A stretch of 32,000 bases of DNA from Promethearchaeota archaeon (GTDB lineage Archaea > Asgardarchaeota > Lokiarchaeia > Sigyniarchaeales > SOKP01): positions 30,001 to 62,000 of the forward strand of contig JAUWGH010000009.1 of assembly GCA_030606485.1 (NCBI GenBank). Direction: 5' to 3'. Each line of letters starts with the position of its first letter. The first letter of the stretch is position 1. Made by a program: the position numbers and the translations under genes. A model generated the notes under the pieces. The model was not told where the DNA came from. It made no database searches and saw nothing but the letters and a program-made list of their open reading frames with translations. Below, in pieces: positions 7,111-28,488 of the stretch.

Positions 7111-7207
7111 GCCTCAGTTGCTTAGCCGGTAGAGCGTTGCCTTGGTATCAAATCCGCAGGTTTAAACAGAAAGGCAAAGGTCGCGGGTCCGATTCCCGCC
7201 TGAGGCT
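7111..7207 (+). tRNA. trnT(GGU): tRNA-Thr(GGU) with a 24-nt intron at 37/38 (7148-7171)
   Basis: Acceptor GCCTCAG/CTGAGGC, D stem GCTT/GAGC, anticodon stem TTGCC/GGCAA with loop TT-GGT-A|A, T stem GCGGG/CCCGC, discriminator T. Confidence 0.93.
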
Positions 7208-7221
7208 CAATATTCGAGGAA

Positions 7222-7359
7222 GTCGGTGTGGCTAAGCTTGGTTAGTAAAGCGCTAAAAAGCGTTAGCGCCAACAAGCGCCAGACTCATAATCTCTTATAA
7301 AGAATTGGGTCAGAAAATAAGACATCTGGAGATCGCGGGCTCGAATCCCGCCACCGACA
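7222..7359 (+). tRNA. trnM(CAU): tRNA-Met(CAU), probably elongator, with two introns (7245-7273 at 21/22; 7290-7323 at 37/38)
   Basis: Acceptor GTCGGTG/CACCGAC; anticodon stem CCAGA/TCTGG with CT-CAT-AA after splicing; T stem GCGGG/CCCGC. G1-C72 argues against initiator; Ile2(CAU) is not fully excluded. Confidence 0.88.
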
Positions 7360-10028: not shown

Positions 10029-10421
10029 ATGAGCGATTTAACACCACAAGAAGCTCAGAATTTATCCGAGTTCTTAGGAAATATCACCGAACATACTGAT
10101 TTAGAAGCATTGGCGTTAGTTACACGAGAAGGTTTAAGACTTGCTTTTTCATGCGTATCGGGATATAATATCAATCCGGATTTATTTTCGTCTATGAGCG
10201 CTGTAGTTATGAAAAGCGGGGAAGATGCTATTCAAGGACTTGAATATAATAATTTACTTGAAGTAATTCTTCGAGGCGATAACGCCTTTATAATTTTAAG
10301 CAACGCTGGACGATTTTTCCTAATGGGTGCAAGTAGAGAGATTAAAGATTTAGGAAAAATAGTTTCGGTTTTTAGATATTATGCTAAAGAAATCTCTAAA
10401 AGGTATCCAAAATTATCTTAA
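10029..10421 (+). CDS. Roadblock/LC7 (MglB-like) protein
   Basis: 130 aa; LEALALVTREGLRLA, DLFSSMSAVVMKSG, LLEVILRGDNAFIIL, LGKIVSVFRYYAKEI follow the roadblock fold pattern. Confidence 0.8.
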   Translation: MSDLTPQEAQNLSEFLGNITEHTDLEALALVTREGLRLAFSCVSGYNINPDLFSSMSAVVMKSGEDAIQGLEYNNLLEVILRGDNAFIILSNAGRFFLMGASREIKDLGKIVSVFRYYAKEISKRYPKLS

Positions 10422-13048: not shown

Positions 13049-13450
13049 ATGAAAGAAGCACGTATTCTTAATATTGATACGAGAGGAAGAATAGTAATCC
13101 CAAATATCTTCCGAAAATCGTTAGGGATCGAGGATGCAACCCAAATAATGATGATAGCAGATAGTGAGAAGAAAGAAATCCGAATCTATCCCGTAGGTTG
13201 GAGTGGAGAAAAAGATACCGTTAAATTTAAAATTTATATGAATGATGTTGCGGGTTCATTAGCACTAATTGCAAAAACCATAGGTGAATTAAAAATCTCT
13301 CTTATTTACGGTGAAGCAATCGTTATTGAGAAAGGAAAATTAGCGATATGGAACGTAATTGCACCTATTCCTGAAGGTTTAAATATTGAAAAAATAATTG
13401 AAACATTAATTCAAAGAGGAAAAGCTCAGAAAATTGAGATAATTGAATAA
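13049..13450 (+). CDS. AbrB/MazE/SpoVT-type DNA-binding domain fused to an ACT-like domain
   Basis: IDTRGRIVIPNIFRKSLGI (AbrB signature); KIYMNDVAGSLALIAKTIGELKISLIY (ACT D-x-x-G-x-L pattern). Confidence 0.75.
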   Translation: MKEARILNIDTRGRIVIPNIFRKSLGIEDATQIMMIADSEKKEIRIYPVGWSGEKDTVKFKIYMNDVAGSLALIAKTIGELKISLIYGEAIVIEKGKLAIWNVIAPIPEGLNIEKIIETLIQRGKAQKIEIIE

Positions 13451-13536: not shown

Positions 13537-14229
13537 ATGGCTAAGAAGAAGATTAAAAAAGAAAAATCAGAAAAGGAAGAAGATTTAAGTGAGCCAGAAG
13601 CTAAGCAAGATGGACTTAGTTTTTTAGAGACCGCTTTGAAAAAAAGTAAAGATAGCAAAAAAACTTTAGAAGAATTTATACTAGGAAAAGCAGAGTCAAA
13701 AATGGAAGAAACTGCAAATGAGGAATATGATAATATCGAGATAACCCCACAATTGACATCTGAAACCAGTCAGGATAAGAAAACGACATCTGAGGAGTCG
13801 GGAATAAAGATCGAGGTTTTAGAGGATTTTAAAGAAATTGAAGATTTATCAACAACACCTCATAGAGAAGAATTGAATTTATATGAGAATATGGGTGGGT
13901 TTTTCGATGAATTATTTAGTAGTTTTAATAATAGATACACAAGATGGGAGAATTCTACTGGAATGATTTTATCCATTTTACGAAAAATGAGAAAAATAAC
14001 AAAAAAAAACACAGAACAACTGATAAATTCAATAGCAAATTTACTTGCAAAAACTCAAAAAGGATTAACTGATTTTGAAATAAAACGTAATGAAATCGAA
14101 AAAATTTCGAATACTAATTTTACCAATATTTCTAAAGATTTTAAAAAAATATTAGGCCTTCTAGAATTACAGATTCAAGAATATCAATTAAAAAAAGAAG
14201 TCTCGGAGCTTTTCCTTAAACCTTCATAA
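13537..14229 (+). CDS. Hypothetical protein: acidic, low-complexity N-terminus and helical/coiled-coil C-terminus
   Basis: 230 aa ORF, K/E-rich, no recognised motif. Confidence 0.6.
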   Translation: MAKKKIKKEKSEKEEDLSEPEAKQDGLSFLETALKKSKDSKKTLEEFILGKAESKMEETANEEYDNIEITPQLTSETSQDKKTTSEESGIKIEVLEDFKEIEDLSTTPHREELNLYENMGGFFDELFSSFNNRYTRWENSTGMILSILRKMRKITKKNTEQLINSIANLLAKTQKGLTDFEIKRNEIEKISNTNFTNISKDFKKILGLLELQIQEYQLKKEVSELFLKPS

Positions 14230-14347
14230 ATAGAGTATTGAATTCATTAAATAATATTTCTTAGTTCTCCTAGAAACCAAGAATTTCATAATTTTTGGGG
14301 GTGTTAATAACAAGGTTTTTTTAAGCATAAATTTCATATTAAATAAT

Positions 14348-15550
14348 ATGGAAAATGAGAAAGAAGAGTTTTTGCGTCCCCTAATCTTAGACATAGGTTC
14401 TGCTAATTTTCGGTTAGGTTTTGCGGGAGACGATCTTCCAGATATTATAGTTCCAAGTATATATGCGGATATAACAGATCCAATATATAAATCAGATAAT
14501 ATTTCTGGATTAAAGGATATATTTGTTTCTAAGAATACAGAAAAACATCTATATGGAATGGAGGCGTTAAAATATAAGGATATTTTGAATAATCATCAAT
14601 TTGTAATAGAAAAAAATTATAATGTCTTGAAAAAATTCTTTTTATATTATTATCATCAATTGGAAATAGAACAGAACTATTTTTTTCAACAGCCATTAAT
14701 TATTTTATTTCCTTTTACCAGCTCAGAAAATGATAAAAAAAAATTGCAACAGATATTTTTAGATGAATTAAATTTTCCAAAAATTAATTTTATTAGTTTT
14801 TCTGATTGTATTTTATCTGCTTTAGGTAAAAATACAGGGGTTGTTATCAATATAGGGGAACAAAATTCATTTGTATCAACATATTTACATGGATATAGTA
14901 ATTTCTCAGCCCGTGAATTTTTTCCAATTGCAGGAAAGGATCTTACAGAATATTTAATGGATTTAATATTATTCAATAAAAAATACAAAATAAATTATAT
15001 AGATCAATGGATTGCACGAGAAATAAAAAATAAATCTTCAATATGTGTTTTTAATCCTAAAGAAACAAAAAAAAAAATTAAAGAAGGATTAAGTTCTTTT
15101 GACCAAGAAATTCAATTACCTGATGGATATATTTTTACGATTAACTTCGAAAGAATAATGATTTCTGAACCTTTATTTAATCCAAATGTGATTCATTTAG
15201 ACACAGTTGAATTACCAAAATTGGTTGCAGAACTTGTAAAAACATGGAATAGGAATGATTGGCTGGAATTACTTCAAAATATTGTTCTTTGTGGGGGGAC
15301 TAGTCTAATTAAAGATCTTGGTAAAAGATTAAAATTGGAAATCGGAAAGTTTTTTTCCAAAAAAATAAAAGATGAGATAAAAGTTATTACACCAACAGGC
15401 AGAGAAAATATGGGATGGATTGGTGCTTCCATTTTATATTCACGTGGATTATTTTCGAAAGGATGGATTGAAAATCCGAATAATCAAAATGAAATTAAAA
15501 ATGATGAAGTTTTATCCCAGCCCCCTTCTAACGCAGTAGATGAGGATTAA
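14348..15550 (+). CDS. Divergent actin-related protein (actin/ARP family)
   Basis: LILDIGSANFRLGFAGDDLPDIIVPS; LPDGYIFTINFERIMISEPLFNP; NIVLCGGTSLIKDLGKRLKLEI; IKVITPTGRENMGWIGASIL. All align with actin hallmark segments. Confidence 0.92.
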   Translation: MENEKEEFLRPLILDIGSANFRLGFAGDDLPDIIVPSIYADITDPIYKSDNISGLKDIFVSKNTEKHLYGMEALKYKDILNNHQFVIEKNYNVLKKFFLYYYHQLEIEQNYFFQQPLIILFPFTSSENDKKKLQQIFLDELNFPKINFISFSDCILSALGKNTGVVINIGEQNSFVSTYLHGYSNFSAREFFPIAGKDLTEYLMDLILFNKKYKINYIDQWIAREIKNKSSICVFNPKETKKKIKEGLSSFDQEIQLPDGYIFTINFERIMISEPLFNPNVIHLDTVELPKLVAELVKTWNRNDWLELLQNIVLCGGTSLIKDLGKRLKLEIGKFFSKKIKDEIKVITPTGRENMGWIGASILYSRGLFSKGWIENPNNQNEIKNDEVLSQPPSNAVDED

Positions 15551-15600
15551 AATGTCAAATATAATTGATTTTAATAAATTTTAAAGGAGTTAATAAGAAT

Positions 15601-18174
15601 ATGCTCTCTCAAAATGAAAAAAGCCAAGAATTTTTCAAAAATTTTGAAAAGCAAATAATCCAAGGTCGAAAATTGTTAAAGTTAGGAAATCATAAGTGGG
15701 CAGATAAGTTATTCACAAAACTATATCTTGATATTCAAAAAGCAGATTGGATAAACCTTCAAAAAAAAGACCAATTAAATGAAATTTTAAATAATTCTTG
15801 GGATAAATATATACAATCTTTAGTTGCACAAACTGAGGAGGGTACAATTTTTGATGTTATAAAATATTATGATTCTTATAATCGTTATTTTGGTTTTTTG
15901 GCAAAACAAGGTAAATATTATGAATTACTACATCACGGAAAAAATCTTATCAAATCTTATATTAATCAACCAGATATTTCAATTAATGGTTTAACAAGAT
16001 TAGTCAACTCTCTTTCAAACATTATGAAAGATGAGGGAAATTATTATGAACTACTTAAATATCAAATCCTATCCATATACCTCCAAAAATCATTTTCTCC
16101 ATCAACTCTATATTATTTTTCTATGAATTATTTATGGGAATTTTTAAAAAAAATTGAACCTTCAAAGAGACCTCTATTACTATATATTTTTTTGGAAAAT
16201 ATTGGAATCTCATATCAATTAAAGGAGAATTCCGATGAATTCATACAAGAGATAAATCATATTATAGTAAATAGATTACGCACCGAATTAAAAAATGAAT
16301 TTTCTCTTTTATCTAGAATAAGAATAAACGATAAAAATTTTAATGAGATCTTCTCAGATTTAGAAAATTTATTGATGTATCTAAATGATATCGGGGAATC
16401 TAATTGGATATTAAGTTTAATTGAAAATATATTTCTAAAAATTATTCAATACGATTCTTTTGATAATGCTGTTGAATATATAAAGAAATACTTATATTTT
16501 TTACTAAAAAGAAATCGATTTGAGATATCATTTAATGTATATAAGTTTTTAGGGAATTATTTTAAAGAATTCCATGAAAATGAATATAATTTTCTTTTAA
16601 TTGAACATTGGGCTGATGCTTGCAAAAATTTTAGAGATCTAAAAGAAAAAAAATATCTTTTGAGATCTTTAGAAGAATTACAAAAAAATATTTCTACTCC
16701 TTCAAATACTAAACAAATAGTGCATTACTTTTATGTCTATAATTTTATTTGGAGGCTAAAAACTAAATTTATTACACCTGAAAAATTTGAATTTTGGAAT
16801 TCAATGTTTTATAGAGCATTTTTTGAAGAACAGGATATAAATTTAAGCGAAAATATAATTAAATTTTTATCCAAAAAAATACAACCATTATTGACAAATT
16901 TACAAGAATTTCGAAATATATGTTCACTGGAGCTTGAAAATATGCCTTTTTTCGATCAACAAGACGAAGGATTACTTAATATATTTGACGAAAAAGAAAA
17001 TCTGAAAATCAAAAATCTCTTAATAAGAATTAGAGATAATGGAGAAATAAACTTTTCTGGAAAATTCGAGGATTCACAAGAATTTCAGGATGTAATTATT
17101 GATGAATATTGGAACGATGATTATTTAATTAAAATTTATAATGATCTTTTTTGGAATATAGAAGTTGAAAAAGATATAACATTTGTAGATTTTGGAAAAC
17201 TTCTGTATTTATCTCTTCCAAAAAAACTTAGAAATATATTTTTAAAATTGAAACAAGATTGTACAGATCATATTCCTCACATATTTTTAATGCTTGATAA
17301 TATAACTATACCGTTTGATTTAATCCACGATGGGTCTGGATTCACTTCATTGAAATATTCTATTGGATACTCTCTTGGAGAACCTGATTTAAGAGGAATT
17401 AATTCGAAAATACCTGTTTTGCCTTTAGATCAATTGAAACAAAAATTTAATATATTAATTTTTGGGAGTTTAAATTTAATGCTTCCATCAAAATGGGATG
17501 ATGCCACAAAAAATAATGTGTTAATGTATCCCTTTAATGAAGGTGTAAATGAGTTAAATCATATTATCCAATATTTCCGTGAATCTTCTTTCGTTGATCA
17601 TATGGAATATTATATACAAGAAAATTTAACACGAGAAAATATTTTAAATAGTATAATCTCAGGCACTAATGACATCATTCATATCATTGGAAATTTATTT
17701 TATTCAACCGAGAATCCAAAAAATAGTTATTTTATTACTAATGATTATCAAACAGTTTCTATTTCAGATATTAATTATGCTATAAAAAAGACTACTACTA
17801 CCAAAAAACCATTCATTTTCTTTAATGTACGTATTTTCAATCTTTTGGGAGATCAATTACCATCAAATTTAAAGGTTATTTCTAAGATAATTCAAAATTT
17901 CGATCAAAACGAGATAACTGGAATTATTGTAAGAATTTTATACGAATTTAACGATAATACAAGGCAATTAATTTCAAATATATATAATAATCTAACTGAT
18001 GGGTTTAGTCAAGGAATTTCTGTATTGAAAGCCCGACAAAAAATTCTTCTAAATAAAGTTGCATCAAATGTTGACCAAAAAGAAATAGATATACAACAAG
18101 ACATGAATGTAGAATCAATCATCGCCTTTAATTCATTTCTTCTTTTTGGAAAGCCTTGGAAAATGCTTGAATAA
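15601..18174 (+). CDS. Large helical N-terminal region plus C-terminal CHAT (caspase/HetF-like) domain lacking the His-Cys dyad
   Basis: CHAT-like segments LYLSLPKKL, IFLMLDNITIPFDLIHDG, DIIHIIGN, PFIFFNVR, SVLKARQKIL, FNSFLLFGKPW. ATG 15601 lies 15 nt after the first G of GGAG and is preferred to TTG 15565. Confidence 0.7.
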   Translation: MLSQNEKSQEFFKNFEKQIIQGRKLLKLGNHKWADKLFTKLYLDIQKADWINLQKKDQLNEILNNSWDKYIQSLVAQTEEGTIFDVIKYYDSYNRYFGFLAKQGKYYELLHHGKNLIKSYINQPDISINGLTRLVNSLSNIMKDEGNYYELLKYQILSIYLQKSFSPSTLYYFSMNYLWEFLKKIEPSKRPLLLYIFLENIGISYQLKENSDEFIQEINHIIVNRLRTELKNEFSLLSRIRINDKNFNEIFSDLENLLMYLNDIGESNWILSLIENIFLKIIQYDSFDNAVEYIKKYLYFLLKRNRFEISFNVYKFLGNYFKEFHENEYNFLLIEHWADACKNFRDLKEKKYLLRSLEELQKNISTPSNTKQIVHYFYVYNFIWRLKTKFITPEKFEFWNSMFYRAFFEEQDINLSENIIKFLSKKIQPLLTNLQEFRNICSLELENMPFFDQQDEGLLNIFDEKENLKIKNLLIRIRDNGEINFSGKFEDSQEFQDVIIDEYWNDDYLIKIYNDLFWNIEVEKDITFVDFGKLLYLSLPKKLRNIFLKLKQDCTDHIPHIFLMLDNITIPFDLIHDGSGFTSLKYSIGYSLGEPDLRGINSKIPVLPLDQLKQKFNILIFGSLNLMLPSKWDDATKNNVLMYPFNEGVNELNHIIQYFRESSFVDHMEYYIQENLTRENILNSIISGTNDIIHIIGNLFYSTENPKNSYFITNDYQTVSISDINYAIKKTTTTKKPFIFFNVRIFNLLGDQLPSNLKVISKIIQNFDQNEITGIIVRILYEFNDNTRQLISNIYNNLTDGFSQGISVLKARQKILLNKVASNVDQKEIDIQQDMNVESIIAFNSFLLFGKPWKMLE

Positions 18175-18258: not shown

Positions 18259-18789
18259 ATGGATAGAATATCACAATTAAGATTAGAAAATACTAAATTA
18301 AGAGATAAGGTTAATGACCTCGAACAAAAAATTATCTCCATTGTCGGTCTAATTGAACTTTTTCCTTCCGGAATTGAAGGTAAAAAAGAAGCACTAAATG
18401 AGAAAATTTCATCAGTTATAAATTCAACTGCTTCTAGTTTAAAAATAATAACCCCTAAAATTGGACCTTTCTATTATGAAGATATTTTAAATGTAGCTAA
18501 TAGGGGAATCCCCGTGCTTATGATAATTAATGACAGAAGGTTTATACCACCAGAATTTCAAAAATATTACGATGATTTAAAAACTAAATCCAATGTAAGT
18601 ATTGTGAATAACCCTAATGTAAAATATCTCTTAGTTATGAATGATAAAGAAGTTGTATTCAGTGCAGCATCCTTAGTTAAAAAAGAATTATCTAATTCTA
18701 TTTTAATAGGAACTCATGTAAAAGAAAAAAATAAATTAGCGAGAATTGAACAGATCTTCTTGAATATGCTTCCATCCTTTATGAGATAA
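18259..18789 (+). CDS. Leucine-zipper-like N-terminus plus degenerate PLD/TrmB-like domain
   Basis: RISQLRLENTKLRDKVNDLEQKI heptads; NVANRGIPVLMII and NVKYLLVMNDKEVVFSAASL resemble PLD-fold segments without HxK. Confidence 0.5.
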   Translation: MDRISQLRLENTKLRDKVNDLEQKIISIVGLIELFPSGIEGKKEALNEKISSVINSTASSLKIITPKIGPFYYEDILNVANRGIPVLMIINDRRFIPPEFQKYYDDLKTKSNVSIVNNPNVKYLLVMNDKEVVFSAASLVKKELSNSILIGTHVKEKNKLARIEQIFLNMLPSFMR

Positions 18790-18888: not shown

Positions 18889-21800
18889 TTAAAATTCTTT
18901 TAATATAGATTCCCCTTCGCGTGAATTTAAAATACCTAATCCAATTTCTCGAATTATTTCCAATTTTCCCTCTATCAACATAAATATATTATCTAATTTG
19001 ATTTTTTGATTTTTGGAAATATAATTTTCAATAATTTTACTACTTTCCTTTGATAATTTTGCAATCTCTAAATGAGATTTAATCTTATTAAATCTAGGAA
19101 TGTTAAAATATAAAGGTCTTTTATGATGATGTCGAGTATCTCTTATAATTTTTACACTTTCAAATAAATCAGGAATGTTTAACATCCCACATAGATAATG
19201 TGCCTCATTTTCATTTTCCGTACTATAATAATAACATGTTGAATCGATGAATTTTCTTCCATCAGGGTCGTATATAACACTGGCAACTAAATTTTTTGCA
19301 TTGGGAAAAATTACTTTATATTTGCCTTTTTGATTTTTTTTTACCTTTGGAAGATTATTTGCAGTATGTGGGCTACATAATTTATTTCTAAAATTAATTC
19401 CGATTTTAAACAGATCCTTTTTAGTCTGTTGCTCATAAATTTTACTTATTAATTTCCAATGTTTTCTACTGAAAGGTCCCAAATTTTCAAAATTATATTG
19501 ATATTCTTTATCTAAAGGTAAAAAAATAGAATAAGTTCCACAATAAAACGGATAAAGTTTTCTTGAAAGAGTTGCTTCGAAAATATTTGTTATTTCAACT
19601 CTTTCTCTTTGATAATGGGCCTTTTTCCAAAATCCTTTTGCTTGTGGTGATATCCATGGTTCAATTATTGCAATATTTCCATTCTGAATTAATTTAATAA
19701 TGTGACAGTAAAGTAAAGACTTTGGGATTAGATCAGCCCCTTGAACAAATTTTGGATGATAGTAAGAGGTATAAATTGGAAGTAATTTGTCTTTTTCTTT
19801 AGGTTTTATTAATTTTTTAACTGAATATTTTTTTCCTCTTTCTTTTTGTGAATATGCCCATGGTTCCAAATAATATTGTTCTATTAATCGCATACTTTCT
19901 GAATCCAAGTAATTACAATGACATGGATATTTCTGAAAAACTGTAGTTATATCATCCTTTTTACTTTCATTAAATTTTGCAAAAAAGCAACAACAATCAA
20001 TATTAAAAACTAGATCATTAAAAATAAAAAATTCTATTTCATAAAAATTATCAAATCTCCGGGCAAATTCATTTTGAGAAGAAACTATTAAGGATCGGGG
20101 CATTACAAAAGCAATTTTACTAGAACCCTCTTTTTTAAGATATAAACTAGGAATTTTGTATAGAAAAATAACGGCTTCTTCGATATTAGTAATATTCTCA
20201 GATCCCGGTAAAATATTATATTGTTTGGAAATTAGCTTCAAATTTCGTTTTAAGTCAGAATTTGCATCTTTATAAGTTAACCAAGGGGGATTAGTTATTA
20301 TTAGATCCATTTTCTCCTTTAACAATAACATTCGAATTCCAACTAAATTATTCAAAATATATAACCAAATATGGTCTTTATCGAGTTGCTTTAAATCATA
20401 TAATTGGTTAAAAAAATTAAATAATACTTCTTTTATCAAAGTGTTAGTAGAACCTATTTTTGAATTAAAGAAGGATAGTTCATCTTTATTATTTAAAAAT
20501 TCAATTGCAGCATCCCATGTATCTTCGAAATTTTCAAATTCTTCCCAGACATTATAAATTAATTTTACTAATTTCCTAAAAATACCAATAGATTTTAAAG
20601 ATAAAGCTTCCTCAGGGATTTTTAATTCTTTTTTATCATCGATTGTATTAATACAAAAATTGTAATAATTACCTAATAATATATCAGATTGTTTAGAAAA
20701 TTCTATTGGATCAATAGAATTACATAGATATACATTTATTGATATTTCTTCAATCCATTTTCTTCGAGATTTAAAATATAAAATCAAATTTGCTTTTGAG
20801 GTTAATATTGCAATAGGATTAATGTCAAAACCATAGATTTTATTAACTGATTCAAACCATTTCTTAGTGGGTTTTGCACCTTCTTCTAATTCAAATAAGC
20901 TATCAATTTTTTTTAATAATTCAATTAAAAAAGTTCCACTTCCACAAGATGAATCTAATACAGCATCACCTAAAGTATAAGATTTTTCCACCATTCGTTT
21001 TGCTAATTTTTCTGGAGTATAATATTCACCTAATTGATGTCTAACTCCAGCAATGATCATTTCTTGATAAATTGTTCTAAAGATATCCGTTGCTTCAAAT
21101 TTCATTAATTTTAATTTATCAAACAACTCATCGCATACTCCTGAAACATTGATAACCCAACGGAAAAAATCATAATGAAATAAGGAAATACCTATTGTTT
21201 CAAAATAATTTTCTAAATCCATAAAATAATCTCTGGAATACTCATCAGGTTTTATGAATTCCTTGTATAGTATTAATTTTATTAAAGTACTCAAATATGA
21301 ATGTCTCAAAAAGAGTTCTTTTCCTATTTTCTCGTCATGATAAGCCATACGGAAATTATTTTTCCATTGCTGGAAACAAACAGTATTTTGTCCCTTATGT
21401 TCATCAAAATGGTTTTCTAATCGTGCTAAATATAATATATAGAGAGGGGAATTAACTCCAAATAATATTGCAAATTGTTCAGCATTTAAAACTCTCGGTT
21501 CAAGAAGACATTGAATTAAAGATCTTATAGATTTTTTATTTAGTTCTTGTTGCTGATGTAGTACCAAATGTTCATCATAATACCAGATAAATTCATCAGA
21601 TATCACAATTAAAAGTGAAGGGAAGGATGCATTTAATTTTCGATATTCCTCAATATATTGTTTCCCTTTGGAGCCAATCCAATTTTCTAACTCCTTTTTT
21701 GAAATTTTATATTTAAAATCAATAATTATATCTCCTATTAATGAATCAGGTCTTCCACTTAGCAATTTTTGCTGTTCTTGATAATTAAGTTCAAATTTAT

Positions 21801-21894
21801 CAAATAAACTTTCAAACCAGTGTTCTATAGTATGCTCATTTAAGGCTCTTCTTAAAGGACTGATATCAAAATCTTTATCATAACTTGAAATCAT
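18889..21894 (-). CDS. Type IIG restriction-modification enzyme (PD-(D/E)XK nuclease + N6-adenine MTase + TRD in one chain)
   Basis: RPDSLIGDIIIDFK; GEYYTPEKLA; VLDSSCGSGTFL; GFDINPIA; IITNPPW; C-terminal TRD-like region (YYLCGMLN-type segment HYLCGMLN). Confidence 0.85.
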   Translation of the reverse strand: MISSYDKDFDISPLRRALNEHTIEHWFESLFDKFELNYQEQQKLLSGRPDSLIGDIIIDFKYKISKKELENWIGSKGKQYIEEYRKLNASFPSLLIVISDEFIWYYDEHLVLHQQQELNKKSIRSLIQCLLEPRVLNAEQFAILFGVNSPLYILYLARLENHFDEHKGQNTVCFQQWKNNFRMAYHDEKIGKELFLRHSYLSTLIKLILYKEFIKPDEYSRDYFMDLENYFETIGISLFHYDFFRWVINVSGVCDELFDKLKLMKFEATDIFRTIYQEMIIAGVRHQLGEYYTPEKLAKRMVEKSYTLGDAVLDSSCGSGTFLIELLKKIDSLFELEEGAKPTKKWFESVNKIYGFDINPIAILTSKANLILYFKSRRKWIEEISINVYLCNSIDPIEFSKQSDILLGNYYNFCINTIDDKKELKIPEEALSLKSIGIFRKLVKLIYNVWEEFENFEDTWDAAIEFLNNKDELSFFNSKIGSTNTLIKEVLFNFFNQLYDLKQLDKDHIWLYILNNLVGIRMLLLKEKMDLIITNPPWLTYKDANSDLKRNLKLISKQYNILPGSENITNIEEAVIFLYKIPSLYLKKEGSSKIAFVMPRSLIVSSQNEFARRFDNFYEIEFFIFNDLVFNIDCCCFFAKFNESKKDDITTVFQKYPCHCNYLDSESMRLIEQYYLEPWAYSQKERGKKYSVKKLIKPKEKDKLLPIYTSYYHPKFVQGADLIPKSLLYCHIIKLIQNGNIAIIEPWISPQAKGFWKKAHYQRERVEITNIFEATLSRKLYPFYCGTYSIFLPLDKEYQYNFENLGPFSRKHWKLISKIYEQQTKKDLFKIGINFRNKLCSPHTANNLPKVKKNQKGKYKVIFPNAKNLVASVIYDPDGRKFIDSTCYYYSTENENEAHYLCGMLNIPDLFESVKIIRDTRHHHKRPLYFNIPRFNKIKSHLEIAKLSKESSKIIENYISKNQKIKLDNIFMLIEGKLEIIREIGLGILNSREGESILKEF

Positions 21895-22692: not shown

Positions 22693-23313
22693 CTAGGCAG
22701 TTTCTTGCTCGGGCATTTCACCCTGAAGCTTCTTATAATGATTTAATACCCCTTGACGTGCAGCATAAACAAATCCCCGCTTCACATTAACTCCAGTAAT
22801 AGCTATCGTCTCATAGATTAGCGTTTGATTTAACTTTGCTTTATCAAGAACCTCACGAATTTTATTTATCTCTACAATATCTTCTAAATCCCGTTTATTT
22901 GCACAAACAACAAGTGGAACTTCCGCTGGGTCTGAAAAACTTTTAGAAATTAATCTATCTCCATAAAATTGTAATAATTCTTTTAAACTCCATATATTTT
23001 CTTCCCACTGGTCGATTAAACTGTCCCAAAAGAAGAGGATACAATCAGTTCCTTTGAGGACCGTTCGTCTCTGGAATTTGTGGCGTCTCTGGCCGGCGAC
23101 GGTATAAACTTGAAACACCACATTGCTTACTCGGGCTACTACTCTATCAAAGAACAATGTACGACCAGTTGGATCAGCTATCTGCTGCATATCACCTGAA
23201 GCAAGTCCCTCTTTCTTGTATACCCATTCTAAGGCAGTTGTTTTTCCTCCTAAAGATGGACCCCAGAATACAACTTTGAAAACCAGTGTTCCATCCCCGC
23301 GACGACTTGGAAT
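22693..23313 (-). CDS. Small GTPase, MglA-like/Ras superfamily; start lies upstream of the ORF-track call (probable ATT at 23313)
   Basis: G1 GPSLGGKTT (upstream of ATG 23190), G2 RTLFFD, G3 YTVAGQ, G4 ANKRD, G5 ETIA. In-frame TGA at 23343-23341; SD AGGAGAGG at 23328-23321. Confidence 0.9.
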   Translation of the reverse strand: MPSRRGDGTLVFKVVFWGPSLGGKTTALEWVYKKEGLASGDMQQIADPTGRTLFFDRVVARVSNVVFQVYTVAGQRRHKFQRRTVLKGTDCILFFWDSLIDQWEENIWSLKELLQFYGDRLISKSFSDPAEVPLVVCANKRDLEDIVEINKIREVLDKAKLNQTLIYETIAITGVNVKRGFVYAARQGVLNHYKKLQGEMPEQETA

Positions 23314-23541: not shown

Positions 23542-24146
23542 TTCTTCAGTTAATTCACCATACTTCTGCGTACTAATAACAAATAGATCTTAATAGTTGT
23601 ATTTCGGCAACGTTAGCTAATCGAGTGGTCTCTCTTCATCAATAAAAAAATATTCAAGGTGTCCATCGATAATAATTTATTTAATCATATTTAATGAACT
23701 GTTAAGAAACCTCTCAAATTTTTTATTGAAGATATCCGAGTGTGTTATACCTCCGTTCGAAAATTTCTGAGTCACAATCACTGTTTGTATTGTAAGTATA
23801 ATATTCACGGTTATTATAGAAATAAAAAGCACTCGAACCTAATTTATAGTCAAGATTTAAGTTATCAAAATCTATCCCAGTCATTGCATTGGCAACTAAA
23901 GTATTCGTATCTAGATTTATACTTAAAATATATGATAATGCACCCTAATATTTTATAATGGAGTTGCAATTAATGAATTAACGTTTTATACTACATCTTG
24001 TTGGTGAGTGATAAAAATTTTAAGAATAAAGATAACTTGTATTTAATAAACAAAAAAAGAAATCTTTATATGTTCAGACAAGAAAAATTAAATGAAATAA
24101 AATAAATTTAAATAAATTAAATTAAAAAAAAAAAAAATGAAATAAA

Positions 24147-24932
24147 ATGAGGAAAGGAATTACAGCAATAGTAATAATAGTTTGTATAGTAGCAGGGTTC
24201 GCTGCTGGATGGCTTTTTTCCGCATTTCTCCCGGGGCTAACACAAGTATCGCTAGTTGATCAGATTAAGGCGCGAGGTTATATCATTGTTGGAACTAGTT
24301 CTGATTGGCCACCCTTCGAGGTATTCAACACGACTACGCAAGAGTTGGAAGGCTTTGACATCGACATATCAGAATTGGTTGCAGCAGAACTCGGTGTTAC
24401 TGTTCAATGGAGCGACATGGACTTTGACTCACTGATAGGTGCTTGTACTGGAGGCACAATCGATATGGTTGCGGCTGCAATAATGGTCACACCAGAACGT
24501 GCAGAAGTTCTCGCGCATTCCGTGCCCTACATTCGTGTAAACGAATTAATCATCGTTAGAGGTGATTCAATCCTTACGATTACTAAATTAGAGGATTTAG
24601 CAGCTCTTCCGGCCAAATCAGTCGGCTGCCAATCGGGTACTACACAAGAGGACGAATTGATAGACGCTGGTGTAGATTATGCGTCATATGTTAGTGCTCT
24701 TTTGATGCTCGCCGACCTAGACGCTGGCGGTATCGATGTAGCATTCATAGACGAGCCAGTCTTAGGTCAGTATATGGCATACGGCTTCAAGTCCATTTTT
24801 AGCGTACCAGCTGAACCTACAGCGTTATGGTGTAAATGGGAAGAACCGGAATTAATGGCGGCGATCAATAAAGCCCTCCTTGAAGCCTATAAAGACGGGA
24901 CGATAGATGCTCTTATCGCAAAGTGGTTTTAG
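24147..24932 (+). CDS. Polar amino-acid ABC transporter substrate-binding protein (family 3) with N-terminal membrane anchor
   Basis: IVGTSSDWPPFE, GFDIDI, DFDSLI, VGCQSGTTQ, LIAKWF. Confidence 0.92.
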   Translation: MRKGITAIVIIVCIVAGFAAGWLFSAFLPGLTQVSLVDQIKARGYIIVGTSSDWPPFEVFNTTTQELEGFDIDISELVAAELGVTVQWSDMDFDSLIGACTGGTIDMVAAAIMVTPERAEVLAHSVPYIRVNELIIVRGDSILTITKLEDLAALPAKSVGCQSGTTQEDELIDAGVDYASYVSALLMLADLDAGGIDVAFIDEPVLGQYMAYGFKSIFSVPAEPTALWCKWEEPELMAAINKALLEAYKDGTIDALIAKWF

Positions 24933-24938
24933 GGGTGA

Positions 24939-25628
24939 TTGATGGTGGAGACGCCAGATCTCCCTTCTATTTTTTTTTATATTCTCGTGAATGGATTACC
25001 CTTAACCTTACTACTCACTGCCCTAGGTCTTTTGGGGGGCTTTTTCCTGGGTTTATCGCTGGCAATCATGCGCGTTTATGGAGGTAAAGACCTTGATTTG
25101 GTATCGAGCGGCTACGGGAAGGTATTGCGTGGCATCCCACTTTTGGTTTTGATCTACATCTTCGTCTTTGGAATACCTGGTATATTTTGGTTTATAGACC
25201 CACTTATGAGACCGCTTTTCGGCGTAATTTTGGCGCTTGCTCTTCGCAGTGGGGCTTACCAATCTCAGCTTTTTCGCGGGGCTATTTTATCCGTGGACCC
25301 GGGGCAGATGATGGCTGCTCGTGCGATGGGGATGAGCCAGTTCCAAGCTTTCCGACACATTGTGTTGCCCCAAGCCCTACGGCTGGCAATACCTAGCTGG
25401 TCTAACGAGTATGCGGTGGTCATCAAGGATTCGTCCTACGCCTACGCGGTTGGAATTATTGAGATGCTAAAGGTGGCATTTCGTGTATCTGCTAATTACC
25501 CACTGCTCTGGGCTCCAACGATGGGTGTTGTTGCGATTCTATACTTTATCTTTACTTATCCTATAACAAGGATATTTGGCGAACGACAAACCAAGAAACT
25601 TAAGAAGTTGGGAATGGGAGGTGGTTAG
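24939..25628 (+). CDS. Polar amino-acid ABC transporter permease (HisM/GlnP family)
   Basis: [49 protein letters not shown]. Confidence 0.92.
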
Positions 25629-25630
25629 AT

Positions 25631-26422
25631 ATCGTTAAATCTGTGCTACGTATAGTTGATGGTTGGAAGTCATATGGGGATTTACAGGTCCTTAAGGGAG
25701 TCTCATTCGAGGTGGGGGAGCAAGAGGTCAAGGTCATCTTTGGACCAAGTGGCTCTGGCAAGAGCACATTGCTTCGTTGCATCAACATGCTGGACCCACT
25801 AGACAAGGGTGAAGTACATCTCCGTGAACAGAATCTTATGGCACCTGGAATCAATCTTAATGCGATACGGGCGAGAATCGGCATGGTATTCCAACATTTT
25901 AATCTGTTCGCCCACCTTAAAGCGATAGATAATGTCAGTATCGGTCTTCGTCAGGTCAAAAAGCTACCAAAGGAGGAGGCTCGCGCAAAGGCATTGGAGA
26001 TGTTAAATCGTGTCAAGATGGCGGAGTGGGTTGATCACTATCCTGCACAACTATCCGGTGGCCAACAACAACGTGTGGGCATTGCACGTGCTTTGTCCAT
26101 GGAACCCGATGTAATTTTGTTTGACGAGCCTACATCTGCCTTGGATCCTGAACTGATAGGCGAAGTGCTTCAAGTGATGTTAGACATCGCTAAATCGGGT
26201 ACTACAATGATAGTCGTCACCCACGAAATGGGATTTGCTAGAGCCGTAGCATCAGAAATGCTCTTCCTCGATAATGGAGTCATTGTAGAACGGGGAACCC
26301 CCCAGCACTTCTTCGTCTCGCCCAAATCCGAGCGGGTAAAACAGTTTCTCAAACAGCTTGATATTTTATACGGAAGCCATAAAGAACTTCTGAAGCGGTC
26401 AAACGAGGAGGAAAGCAAGTAA
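25631..26422 (+). CDS. Polar amino-acid ABC transporter ATP-binding protein (GlnQ family); start ATC 25631 or GTG 25643
   Basis: [54 protein letters not shown]. Confidence 0.95.
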
Positions 26423-27198
26423 TGTTTCAAGTACTCCCTCAACCGATAGAGGATATTCTCCGTGTACTGGAGTACTGGGATCATATCCTCGCAGGGTTCC
26501 TAACTACGATGGAATTGTATGGAGGGGCGATTGTGATGGGCTTTTTCCTTGGTCTTCTGCTCGCTCTTCTCCGCCAGTATGGGGGGTTTATTATTTCACG
26601 GATTGCTACCGGGTACATTGAATTTATACGTGGTACACCCTTACTCGCGCAGTTGTTCTTCATTTACTTTCTCCCCTACAGCATGAATGCTATTTTAGAG
26701 GCACAAGGTCTTTTCCCCATACCTATTGGGAAGTGGAGTTTCCAAACCGACATTATAATCCTCGACCGGATTATCACTTACACAATCTTTGATCACCGAA
26801 TGCTTGTCGGTCTCCTCACGTTAGCTCTTAATAGTGCAGCCTATCAGGCTGAATACATCCGTGGAGCCATTAAATCTGTTGGGACCGGTCAATTATTAGC
26901 TGCCCAATCGCTGGGTATGTCTCGTCTGGCCAGTATTCGTCATGTCGTGTTACCACAGGCTCTGCGTCGTGTTATTCCTGCGTGGTCCAACGAAGCTGCT
27001 TATCTTCCGAAGTACACCGTTGTTGTATTTTTCATTGGAGTGGTGGACCTCTTTGGCAAGGCGCATTTTATCGTTGCAAATATTTTTCGCACACTCACCA
27101 CATATTGCATAATCGCTCTCATTTTTCTAGCTCTGATCACAATTATCTCCAAGGTACTAGACTTTGTCCACAAACGGACAAGTATTCCAGGTTTGTAG
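26422..27198 (+). CDS. Polar amino-acid ABC transporter permease (second)
   Basis: IRGTPLLAQL, SAAYQAEYIRGAIKSV..GQ..AA.SLGMS, LPQALRR; start overlaps the upstream stop (TAATG). Confidence 0.92.
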   Translation: MFQVLPQPIEDILRVLEYWDHILAGFLTTMELYGGAIVMGFFLGLLLALLRQYGGFIISRIATGYIEFIRGTPLLAQLFFIYFLPYSMNAILEAQGLFPIPIGKWSFQTDIIILDRIITYTIFDHRMLVGLLTLALNSAAYQAEYIRGAIKSVGTGQLLAAQSLGMSRLASIRHVVLPQALRRVIPAWSNEAAYLPKYTVVVFFIGVVDLFGKAHFIVANIFRTLTTYCIIALIFLALITIISKVLDFVHKRTSIPGL

Positions 27199-27507
27199 TT
27201 TGTCCAAGAATCTATTTACTATTAAACAGAATGAGCATACGCAGTTTATAGTTATCGATGTAATCTTAAAGATATTTCTAAATTTCAATATTTTAATTTT
27301 GAACCTTAAGATAAAATAAATAGCGATATGTTTGAAGATATGTTCTACCCAAATTTTATTATAAAATTAAAACCTGTAGTAAAGGGATTAATTTACAAAT
27401 ACCTTAACTTTCGATGATTTGTATTTGGAAAAAAATTTATAAGAAGTGAAATTGTTAGAGTTAATAATTAAGAAATAACTAAATCCATAATCAGATGGTG
27501 GTTTTAC

Positions 27508-28488
27508 ATATCTGAAATAATTACTCTCAAAAAAATCGAGGATGCACAAAAGAGAATCAGTGATTTTATCAAGAGAACACCTCTTATCTATTCGGAGTTT
27601 ATTAGTGAGCTATGTAATGGCACAGTCTATCTTAAGTTGGAGAACCAACAACTCACCAACGCTTTCAAGATACGAGGAGCATTTAACCTAATGATGCAAT
27701 TAAGTACAGAAGAGAGGTCTCGTGGTGTTGTTACCGCTTCATCAGGGAATCATGCATTGGCAGTAGCCTTAGCTGCAAAACATTTAGGCATCTTTGCCAT
27801 AATTGTAGTTCCGACGAATGTATCAAAAGCCAAGCTAAACAAGATGAAGGAGTATGATATCAAAGTTATTCAAGAAGGAGACTTCGAAGAGATCTATACA
27901 AAAGCAAGAGAGATATCTACCAGCGAGGGTCTAACCTACATCAGTTCGTACAATGATCTAGAGGTTATAGCAGGTCAAGGAACAATAGGTCTTGAAATCT
28001 ATGAAGAGATTGGACGGGTAGATTCAATCATTGTTCCTGTTGGTGGAGGAAGCTTGATTTCTGGTATTGCCATTGCAGTAAAATCTTTTAATCCTAATAC
28101 CAGGATAATAGGGGTTCAGACAGGGGGAGCTTCCACAATGTATGAGTCTTGGAAAGCTAGAAGAGTGGTAAGCGTCGAAGAGTATCATACATTAGCGGAA
28201 GGTCTATTGGGTGGTCTTGATCCCGAAGCTATCACCCTAGAATTGATACAAAAATATGTAGATGAGTTAGTCTTAGTAAAAGAGAGAAGTATTGAAGAAG
28301 CAATCCGCCTTTTATGGAAGAAAGAGGGGCAGATCGTTGAAGGAGCAGGAGCAACGACCATTGCCCATATTCTAGAAGAAAAACGAAAATTCGTAAAAAA
28401 GAAGGTGGTAGCCGTAGTGAGTGGGGGAAACATCGAAGACTCCTTATTTCAAGAGATTTTAAGTACAGAACAGACTAGTAAAGATTGA
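27508..28488 (+). CDS. PLP-dependent threonine/serine dehydratase (IlvA/TdcB/serine racemase family), no ACT domain; start upstream of the ORF track (probable ATA 27508)
   Basis: ITLKKIEDAQKRISDFIKRTPL...VYLKLENQQLTNAFKIRGA, TASSGNHA, AGQGTIGLEI, PVGGGSLISG, VVSGGNI. In-frame TAA at 27469-27471. Confidence 0.9.
   Translation: MSEIITLKKIEDAQKRISDFIKRTPLIYSEFISELCNGTVYLKLENQQLTNAFKIRGAFNLMMQLSTEERSRGVVTASSGNHALAVALAAKHLGIFAIIVVPTNVSKAKLNKMKEYDIKVIQEGDFEEIYTKAREISTSEGLTYISSYNDLEVIAGQGTIGLEIYEEIGRVDSIIVPVGGGSLISGIAIAVKSFNPNTRIIGVQTGGASTMYESWKARRVVSVEEYHTLAEGLLGGLDPEAITLELIQKYVDELVLVKERSIEEAIRLLWKKEGQIVEGAGATTIAHILEEKRKFVKKKVVAVVSGGNIEDSLFQEILSTEQTSKD

Follow-up and report, generated by a model that had tools for sequence, protein, structure and literature searches.

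An actin-related gene in an Asgard genome

The window analysed here is a 32,000-nucleotide stretch from a Promethearchaeota archaeon of the Lokiarchaeia (GenBank assembly GCA_030606485.1, contig JAUWGH010000009.1, positions 30,001–62,000). Its gene at 14348–15550 on the plus strand encodes an actin-related protein (ARP) of 400 residues, in an open reading frame (ORF) from the ATG at 14348 to a stop codon ending at 15550. The gene is the third in a co-oriented run of five, after an AbrB–ACT gene and the gene of an orphan helical protein, and before the genes of a large TPR-CHAT protein and a small, tentatively PLD-like protein. The ARP retains the actin fold and the nucleotide-holding backbone, and all three residues of the water-activating triad are replaced.

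The ARP matches the Pfam Actin family (PF00022) over residues 11–374 with E 1.5e-46 and 159.2 bits, well above the curated cut-off of 27, and the solved structures closest to it in sequence are eukaryotic actins (E ~1e-36). Its AlphaFold2 (AF2) model, built on an 88-sequence alignment, has the four-subdomain actin fold with a mean predicted local distance difference test score (pLDDT) of 88.6 and a predicted template-modelling score (pTM) of 0.85. The profile score and the fold together make it a member of the actin family, and the ORF 14348–15550 is a genuine gene whose product is a divergent representative of that family.

The top Foldseek matches of the model are actins only. Among ~48,000 PDB representatives compared with VIA, conventional actin 4pl7 is the closest (Z 40, root-mean-square deviation 2.1 Å over 339 residues), followed by Arp3 (36), Arp4 (34), Arp7/9 (33), crenactin (31.7), a dynactin chain (31) and MreB (26), the ARPs as a group scoring 30–36. 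In this comparison, conventional actin stands ahead of Arp3, Arp4 and Arp7/9, and no signal singles out one of the eukaryotic classes Arp1–Arp11 as orthologous.

The window is C7:30001–62000 of the genome, and the names of homologues (Promethearchaeota, Lokiarchaeota) and intron-bearing tRNAs agree with a Loki-type Asgard archaeon. The genome (3.75 Mb, 13 contigs) has four actin-family genes, those of Lokiactin, a 375-residue ARP, a 520-residue ARP and the present ARP. The Lokiactin gene on contig C6 scores 445 bits against Pfam Actin and is intact at Q137, D154 and H161 (actin numbering). The present ARP is the most divergent of the four, at 153–159 bits. Candidatus Lokiarchaeum ossiferum has the same pattern of one Lokiactin and three divergent homologues, which group with ARPs, are weakly expressed and are of unknown function (Rodrigues-Oliveira et al. 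2022, PMC9834061). That report covers neither the catalytic sites of its ARPs nor their gene neighbourhoods or partners.

The two other ARP paralogues differ in kind. The 375-residue one (L002, G000:C1:128379-129506) is 44% identical to Lokiactin and carries Q137D, D154E and H161R. The 520-residue one (L003, G000:C10:616014-617576) has an insertion of ~150 residues with two CxxC...CxxC zinc ribbons. Its pointed face is 59% identical to that of Lokiactin, far above the 36% of the whole protein, so it is a better candidate for a filament-end binder than the present ARP.

Two minor features lie at the ARP gene itself. A T-rich TATA-like element (TTTTTTTAAG) within 14300–14347 ends ~25 nt 5′ of the ATG, and this distance suggests that the gene has its own promoter, apart from the AbrB–ACT and helical-protein genes, and a leaderless or nearly leaderless transcript. 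An antisense ORF of 100 residues at 14686–14988, inside the gene, is taken for a chance frame in AT-rich DNA.

The nucleotide site

In actin, Q137 holds the nucleophilic water, and D154 and H161 make up the activating network (Oosterheert et al. 2022, PMC9646518). The triple mutant Q137A/D154A/H161A has no measurable ATPase activity, as cited in the same paper.

The phosphate-1 loop of the ARP, DIGSANFR (residues 15–22, 14390–14413, plus strand), retains D11, G13 and S14 as D15, G17 and S18, as the preliminary description of this DNA had it, with G15 turned into alanine and K18 into arginine. The equivalents of G156 (G170), G182 and K213 are also in place, as are those of G301 and G302 (G316–G317) in the adenosine motif CGGTSL (residues 315–320, 15290–15307, plus strand). 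The backbone that holds the nucleotide is retained in all these positions.

The phosphate-2 loop (residues 168–175, 14849–14872, plus strand) reads NIGEQNSF for the DSGDGVTH of actin, and HMMER and MAFFT both align the two without a gap. The changes D154N, G158Q and H161F had been noticed before and stand in this register, with D157E in addition. The preliminary description had further placed an aspartate at Q137, and here it was off by two residues. The segment from P144 (actin P130) to G164 (actin G150) is as long as in actin, so the register is ungapped and F151 (14798–14800, plus strand) falls at Q137. The model agrees, as its strand 145–150 is followed by a helix from 151 in the arrangement of actin, and D153 was accordingly rejected for that position. 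Q137 is lost in either register, and proper alignment brings back neither it nor H161.

Thus the triad Q137, D154 and H161 is replaced with F151, N168 and F175, and the site is not that of an ATPase-competent actin. The three residues would be unable to position or activate the attacking water, and we infer that the ARP is hydrolysis-poor. In nature, it parallels the ATPase-dead actin made in the laboratory, with the same three positions changed at once (PMC9646518). The mutant is otherwise a normal actin and still polymerises, whereas in the ARP the changes also reach subdomain 2, the C-terminus and the sensor loop.

Across a large protein collection, the ARP has more than 120 homologues at ~50% identity. 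In their consensus (n = 120), Q137 is E in 103, D154 is N in 112, D157 is E in 114, G158 is S in 101 and H161 is Y in 80. Asparagine at D154 is hence a trait of the ARP family, found in 112 of the 120. Phenylalanine at Q137, glutamine at G158 and phenylalanine at H161 are confined to the present genus and its nearest relatives, where they are stable down to 65% identity. The present protein is more extreme in its catalytic loss than the family at large, as judged from these residues. The genus is not simply an unusually long branch, an explanation rejected since the neighbouring housekeeping protein YjeF is also only 50–56% identical to those of other genera.

Surfaces and filament contacts

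The departures from actin extend beyond the nucleotide site. The D-loop region of subdomain 2 (residues 46–66, 14483–14545, plus strand) is rebuilt, with an 11-residue insertion relative to the Lokiactin of the same genome and a motif SD.I.GLE.I conserved in the ARP family; its model confidence is low. The H73 sensor loop lacks three of the residues present in Lokiactin, subdomain 1 has a three-residue insertion relative to it, and a new conserved motif, W-x-R-x-x-W, takes the place of the actin 285–294 helix.

The last helix of actin is absent. Instead, the ARP ends in an acidic, disordered tail (residues 374–400, 15467–15547, plus strand) with pLDDT below 50 from residue 384. It counts 27 residues past W373 with a net charge of −6 and is specific to the genus, the family median being 15 residues and a net charge of −2. 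The long D-loop region and the acidic tail had both been described earlier, and both are borne out.

We placed the canonical F-actin contact residues on the ARP–Lokiactin alignment in a rough analysis. The identity to Lokiactin is 32% on the pointed face, 22% on the barbed face and 25% on the lateral surface, relative to 27% in the whole protein. By this rough measure, the contact residues resemble Lokiactin no more than the protein does overall, and there is no sign of a face kept for docking onto Lokiactin. The loss of the triad, the rebuilt subdomain 2, the missing C-terminal helix and the contacts at background identity together suggest that the ARP is a non-filament protein.

A conserved gene run with a TPR-CHAT pseudo-protease

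We compared 22 loci with an orthologue of the ARP. Twenty are from genomes of the same GTDB family, covering at least seven genera, and two are from contigs of metagenomes or metagenome-assembled genomes, one of which duplicates one of the 20. The co-oriented run of AbrB–ACT, helical protein, ARP, TPR-CHAT protein (830–870 residues) and a protein of ~175 residues occurs in 22 of the 22 loci. All five genes are there in 21; in the remaining one, the contig stops inside the TPR-CHAT gene. On a 23rd contig, seen as a gene-call listing, the gene sizes and their order match the run.

The gene directly downstream of the ARP (15601–18174, plus strand) encodes 857 residues from its ATG, with an alternative TTG start at 15565. 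Its assignment as a TPR-CHAT protein comes from Pfam, AF2 and Foldseek. Pfam CHAT is matched in 15 of 20 orthologues, at best with E 6.8e-11. In the AF2 model (pLDDT 79), an alpha/beta domain comes after an all-helical repeat of ~460 residues, and the Foldseek matches of the model are Csx29/TPR-CHAT, the anti-sigma factor DdvA and separases (E 7.5e-12 to 1e-6). The profile of the family found no match among PDB sequences at E up to 1, so the likeness is at the level of the fold and of Pfam CHAT.

The catalytic dyad is absent in all 25 TPR-CHAT sequences inspected, with N for the histidine and Q, R, V or H for the cysteine. Hence the protein is a pseudo-protease. It resembles the TPR-CHAT proteases, such as Csx29 of type III-E CRISPR, DdvA and separase, in having a helical-repeat N-terminus and a caspase-like CHAT domain, and differs from them in the missing dyad and in the lack of a CRISPR or sigma-factor context.

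The other members of the run are less telling. The first gene in the GTDB family (13049–13450, plus strand, 133 residues, 22/22 loci) encodes an AbrB/MraZ-type N-terminus, with weak Pfam matches to MraZ and MazE, and an ACT-like C-terminus, with an ACT match in an orthologue. The second (13537–14229, plus strand, 230 residues, 22/22 loci) encodes an orphan helical protein of no Pfam family. It is 205–293 residues long across the loci, charged in its N-terminal half and conserved in its C-terminal half, and none of its look-alikes in the protein atlas is above 0.80. The last gene (18259–18789, plus strand, 176 residues, 21/22 loci) may encode a coiled coil with a PLD-like domain. The evidence for this is weak, a weak Pfam match to PP_kinase_C and an atlas cluster of PLDc_2 at 0.86 that serves as a lead only.

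Upstream of the run, a block of YjeF, gelsolin-like, roadblock and vWA genes is found in 15 of the 22 loci, and other genes stand there in the remaining seven. This swap puts the breakpoints outside the core. The preliminary description had mentioned that many ARPs with such losses serve as subunits of complexes, and the strictly conserved operon with the TPR-pseudoCHAT protein lends independent support to such a role at the sequence level.

Distribution and a sister clade

In a survey of 301 Asgard genomes, with E below 1e-116 as the level of orthologues, the ARP was found at 45–53% identity in ~60 of the 68 genomes that belong to its own GTDB family. Outside that family, the matches were at the level of paralogues (E 1e-34 to 1e-43), giving a bimodal result. 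Lokiactin-like presence across all Asgard classes is not seen for the ARP, the orthologue level being reached in one GTDB family only.

The nearest ARP relatives outside the family are metagenomic Asgard proteins of ~30% identity (E 1e-40 to 1e-51), which form a sister clade. This clade is present in part of the neighbouring GTDB family. A search with profile A2 as the query detected it in genera g12 and g13 and drew a blank in g11 and in the three g10 genomes, one of which is closed. So far, finds of the ARP clade are limited to a single order of the Lokiarchaeia-type Asgard archaea.

The sister-clade loci have the helical protein, the ARP, a protein of 850–890 residues and one of ~172 residues, and then an extra gene of ~400 residues. 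The four-gene core recurs in five such loci, including that of the cultured Promethearchaeum syntrophicum MK-D1. The ARP and TPR-CHAT genes overlap or are 1–15 bp apart there. The helical protein is 40% identical between the clades over 107 residues, and the small PLD-like protein 43%. An ARP gene immediately followed, within the four-gene core, by a TPR-CHAT gene that lacks the dyad, which we take as the mark of a module ARP, is thus common to the window, the 22 family loci and the five sister-clade loci.

The nucleotide site of the sister clade has gone another way. It retains D154, has H, E or Y at D157 and R at H161, and is variable at Q137, K18 and G302. The module partnership is kept while the ATPase site drifts between the clades, an argument against hydrolysis as the function under selection.

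The MK-D1 member, the hypothetical protein DSAG12_01479, illustrates both the likeness and the distance. Its locus is like the present one in the helical protein, the ARP, a gene of ~850 residues with a dead dyad at the TPR-CHAT position and one of 172 residues at the PLD-like position. On the other hand, its clade is only ~30% identical to the present ARP (28% for its 79%-identical relative in genome G285), keeps D154, has R at H161 and has often lost K18 and G302, and the extra ~400-residue gene stands in its locus instead of the AbrB–ACT and methylase-like neighbours.

In a quick IQ-TREE analysis of 91 rows under LG+G4, a branch with an approximate likelihood-ratio (SH-aLRT) support of 99 sets the two module-ARP clades (24 rows) together apart from Lokiactin, the two other paralogues and the other representatives. 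The tree is unrooted, and their grouping is strictly a clan. The preliminary description had held the ARP to be distinct from Lokiactin, and so it is, with a separate Lokiactin gene in the genome, 26% identity between the two and the well-supported branch between their clades. Being an actin homologue outside the Lokiactin clade, it is an Asgard non-Lokiactin ARP in the sense of PMC9834061.

The closest sequence matches outside the Asgard archaea are 'actin-related' proteins of Anaeramoeba flamelloides and A. ignava (P0127, P0130, P0139), with E down to 1e-43. Some of them are 760–895 residues long, and they outscore conventional actins. A common AT-rich amino-acid composition may lie behind these matches.

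A deletion in the same genus

In genome G129 of the same genus (locus L063, G129:C20), the interval equivalent to 14236–17560 is missing, taking away the whole ARP gene and ~650 N-terminal codons of TPR-CHAT. The locus is otherwise collinear at 93% nucleotide identity, and the 3,325-bp deletion is clean with no Ns at the junction. A C-terminal remnant ORF of 205 residues is left of TPR-CHAT, and an 8-bp sequence (AATATTTC) occurs near both breakpoints.

Five family genomes without an ARP orthologue likewise have no TPR-CHAT match. We rejected this co-loss as evidence of coupling, since the absences are mostly assembly breaks and only the G129 deletion is clean. G099 and G255, two of the five, have the PLD-like gene at the end of a contig, as G099 also has the vWA gene. 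In G177, a further genome without the ARP and of the same genus, the contig stops inside the TPR-CHAT gene. The contigs that end in or beside the module are G099:C252, G099:C302, G177:C513 and G255:C153. Strain-level variation in its presence may break the assemblies there.

A proposed role and its alternatives

From sequence and models, we consider it somewhat probable that the ARP is a folded protein in which any bound nucleotide would be a structural cofactor and would not be hydrolysed, and that it would not use the canonical contacts to form filaments of the actin type or to enter them. Instead, it would be a fixed subunit of a complex, in which the separase/Csx29-shaped pseudo-protease serves as the scaffold. 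More tentatively, and short of a balanced case, the ARP could be the core of an undescribed Asgard complex, with the TPR-CHAT pseudo-protease, the orphan helical protein and a dead protein of the PLD fold as its other parts.

The eukaryotic analogy would be Arp4 and Arp8, non-polymerising subunits of chromatin remodellers. These hold a structural ATP with little or no hydrolysis, Q137 being T in Arp4 and E in Arp8, and H161 being S in Arp8, and the Arp8 activity is a low, basal one (Gerhold et al. 2012, PMC3510490). As parts of INO80, SWR1 and NuA4, they share with the ARP the actin fold (VIA Z 32–34) and the replacement of Q137 and H161, insertions block their polymerisation, and they act as fixed subunits of a large complex (PMC3510490). 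The ARP differs from them in that there is no evidence of orthology and that D154, kept in Arp8, is N. The partners also differ, TPR-pseudoCHAT and small orphan proteins for the ARP and the HSA helix of the remodellers for Arp4 and Arp8.

Other ARPs are held by non-actin subunits in stable complexes as well, namely those of Arp2/3 and the dynactin Arp1 and Arp11 (Z 36 for Arp3 and 31 for the dynactin chain). Those ARPs keep one actin-like face for filaments, whereas the present one appears to keep neither. The crenactin–arcadin cluster of Thermoproteales likewise encodes an archaeal actin homologue with lineage-specific partners (Z 31.7), yet crenactin is an active filament-forming ATPase, is 15% identical to the ARP and has unrelated partners.

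If the ARP is indeed the core of such an undescribed complex, an actin relative that once split ATP and formed filaments would have become, in a prokaryote, a fixed building block locked to its nucleotide, and this ARP-style use would predate eukaryotes. A literature search found the class itself published and no paper on the function, partners, catalytic sites or biochemistry of Asgard ARPs, or on the operon. The ARP has three strictly co-inherited candidate partners, and the cultured MK-D1 carries the sister version. With the natural loss of the triad, these make the role of archaeal ARPs and the pre-eukaryotic origin of non-polymerising subunits directly testable.

Several points weigh against the fixed-subunit role. 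Adjacency of genes is no proof of physical contact. Most of the ARP family has E at both Q137 and D157, the former as in the weakly ATPase-active Arp8, and slow ATP hydrolysis may therefore be a property of the family at large. The contact residues are those of published F-actin filament structures, and their mapping is rough. Moreover, crenactin and ParM, which are divergent actin-fold proteins, polymerise through quite different contacts, so the loss of the actin-type ones leaves room for a filament of its own. Finally, the ARP/TPR-CHAT pair is dispensable in G129, if the deletion there is real.

The alternative that fares best, unlikely as we find it, draws on some of these points. The ARP would still be an active ATPase with its own dynamic filament, in which E171 (at D157), D153 or the family E at Q137 substitutes for the lost residues and the neighbours act as arcadin-like regulators. 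The retained nucleotide-binding backbone, the intact fold and the Arp8-like glutamate in 103 of the 120 homologues are in its favour, and prokaryotic actin-like genes often share an operon with their partners, as with crenactin and the arcadins or in ParMRC. However, the genus has F, N and F with no acid or amide at the canonical positions near the attacking water, and the sister clade alters K18, D157 and G302 too, leaving a site that is not conserved across the module ARPs. The contact residues at background identity and the loss of the C-terminal helix that lines up with the barbed-end groove in actin also speak against it. Should the ARP be an ordinary weak ATPase or form a private filament, the analysis would still be of use as the annotation of a paralogue specific to its lineage.

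Somewhat less credible again is a regulator of Lokiactin filaments, that is, a nucleator, end-capper or anchor that mimics one end of a subunit and is held by TPR-pseudoCHAT. The ARP and Lokiactin share the actin fold, eukaryotic ARPs such as those of Arp2/3 and the dynactin Arp11 act in this way, and gelsolin-like, roadblock and vWA genes lie upstream in 15 of the 22 loci. In the other seven, however, the core does without this block, and neither the barbed nor the pointed face (22% and 32%) is conserved above the 27% background, whereas the paralogue on C10 reaches 59% on its pointed face. In addition, no ARPC-like or dynactin-like subunit family is found among the genes neighbouring the ARP.

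A decaying paralogue headed for loss, its odd site reflecting relaxed constraint, is highly improbable and was rejected: the clean 3.3-kb deletion in the same genus and the weak expression of the non-Lokiactin homologues of L. ossiferum (PMC9834061) would fit it, whereas the frame is intact in ~60 genomes, 15 columns are invariant and ~100 nearly invariant across the 88-sequence alignment, F/N/F persists in sequences down to 65% identity, the AF2 model has high confidence, and a ratio of nonsynonymous to synonymous substitution rates (dN/dS) of 0.17 relative to a same-genus orthologue of 89% identity indicates purifying selection on the gene.

Other features around the module

In 20 of the 22 family loci, a co-oriented gene of ~730 residues, like an Eco57I/MmeI-type methylase, comes after the module. 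In the window, a gene of 1001 residues is at this position (18889–21894), on the opposite, minus strand and only ~30% identical. An Arf/Ras-family small GTPase gene (22693–23190, minus strand) is ~80% identical across genera and lies near the module in many loci. The roadblock gene at 10029–10421 is 72–80% identical.

The GC content is 0.41–0.44 at 24001–28000 and 0.24–0.33 in the rest of the window, and this rise suggests a compositionally foreign island. Two adjacent tRNA genes at 7111–7207 and 7222–7359 are 97 and 138 nt long, far longer than mature tRNA, so both have introns.

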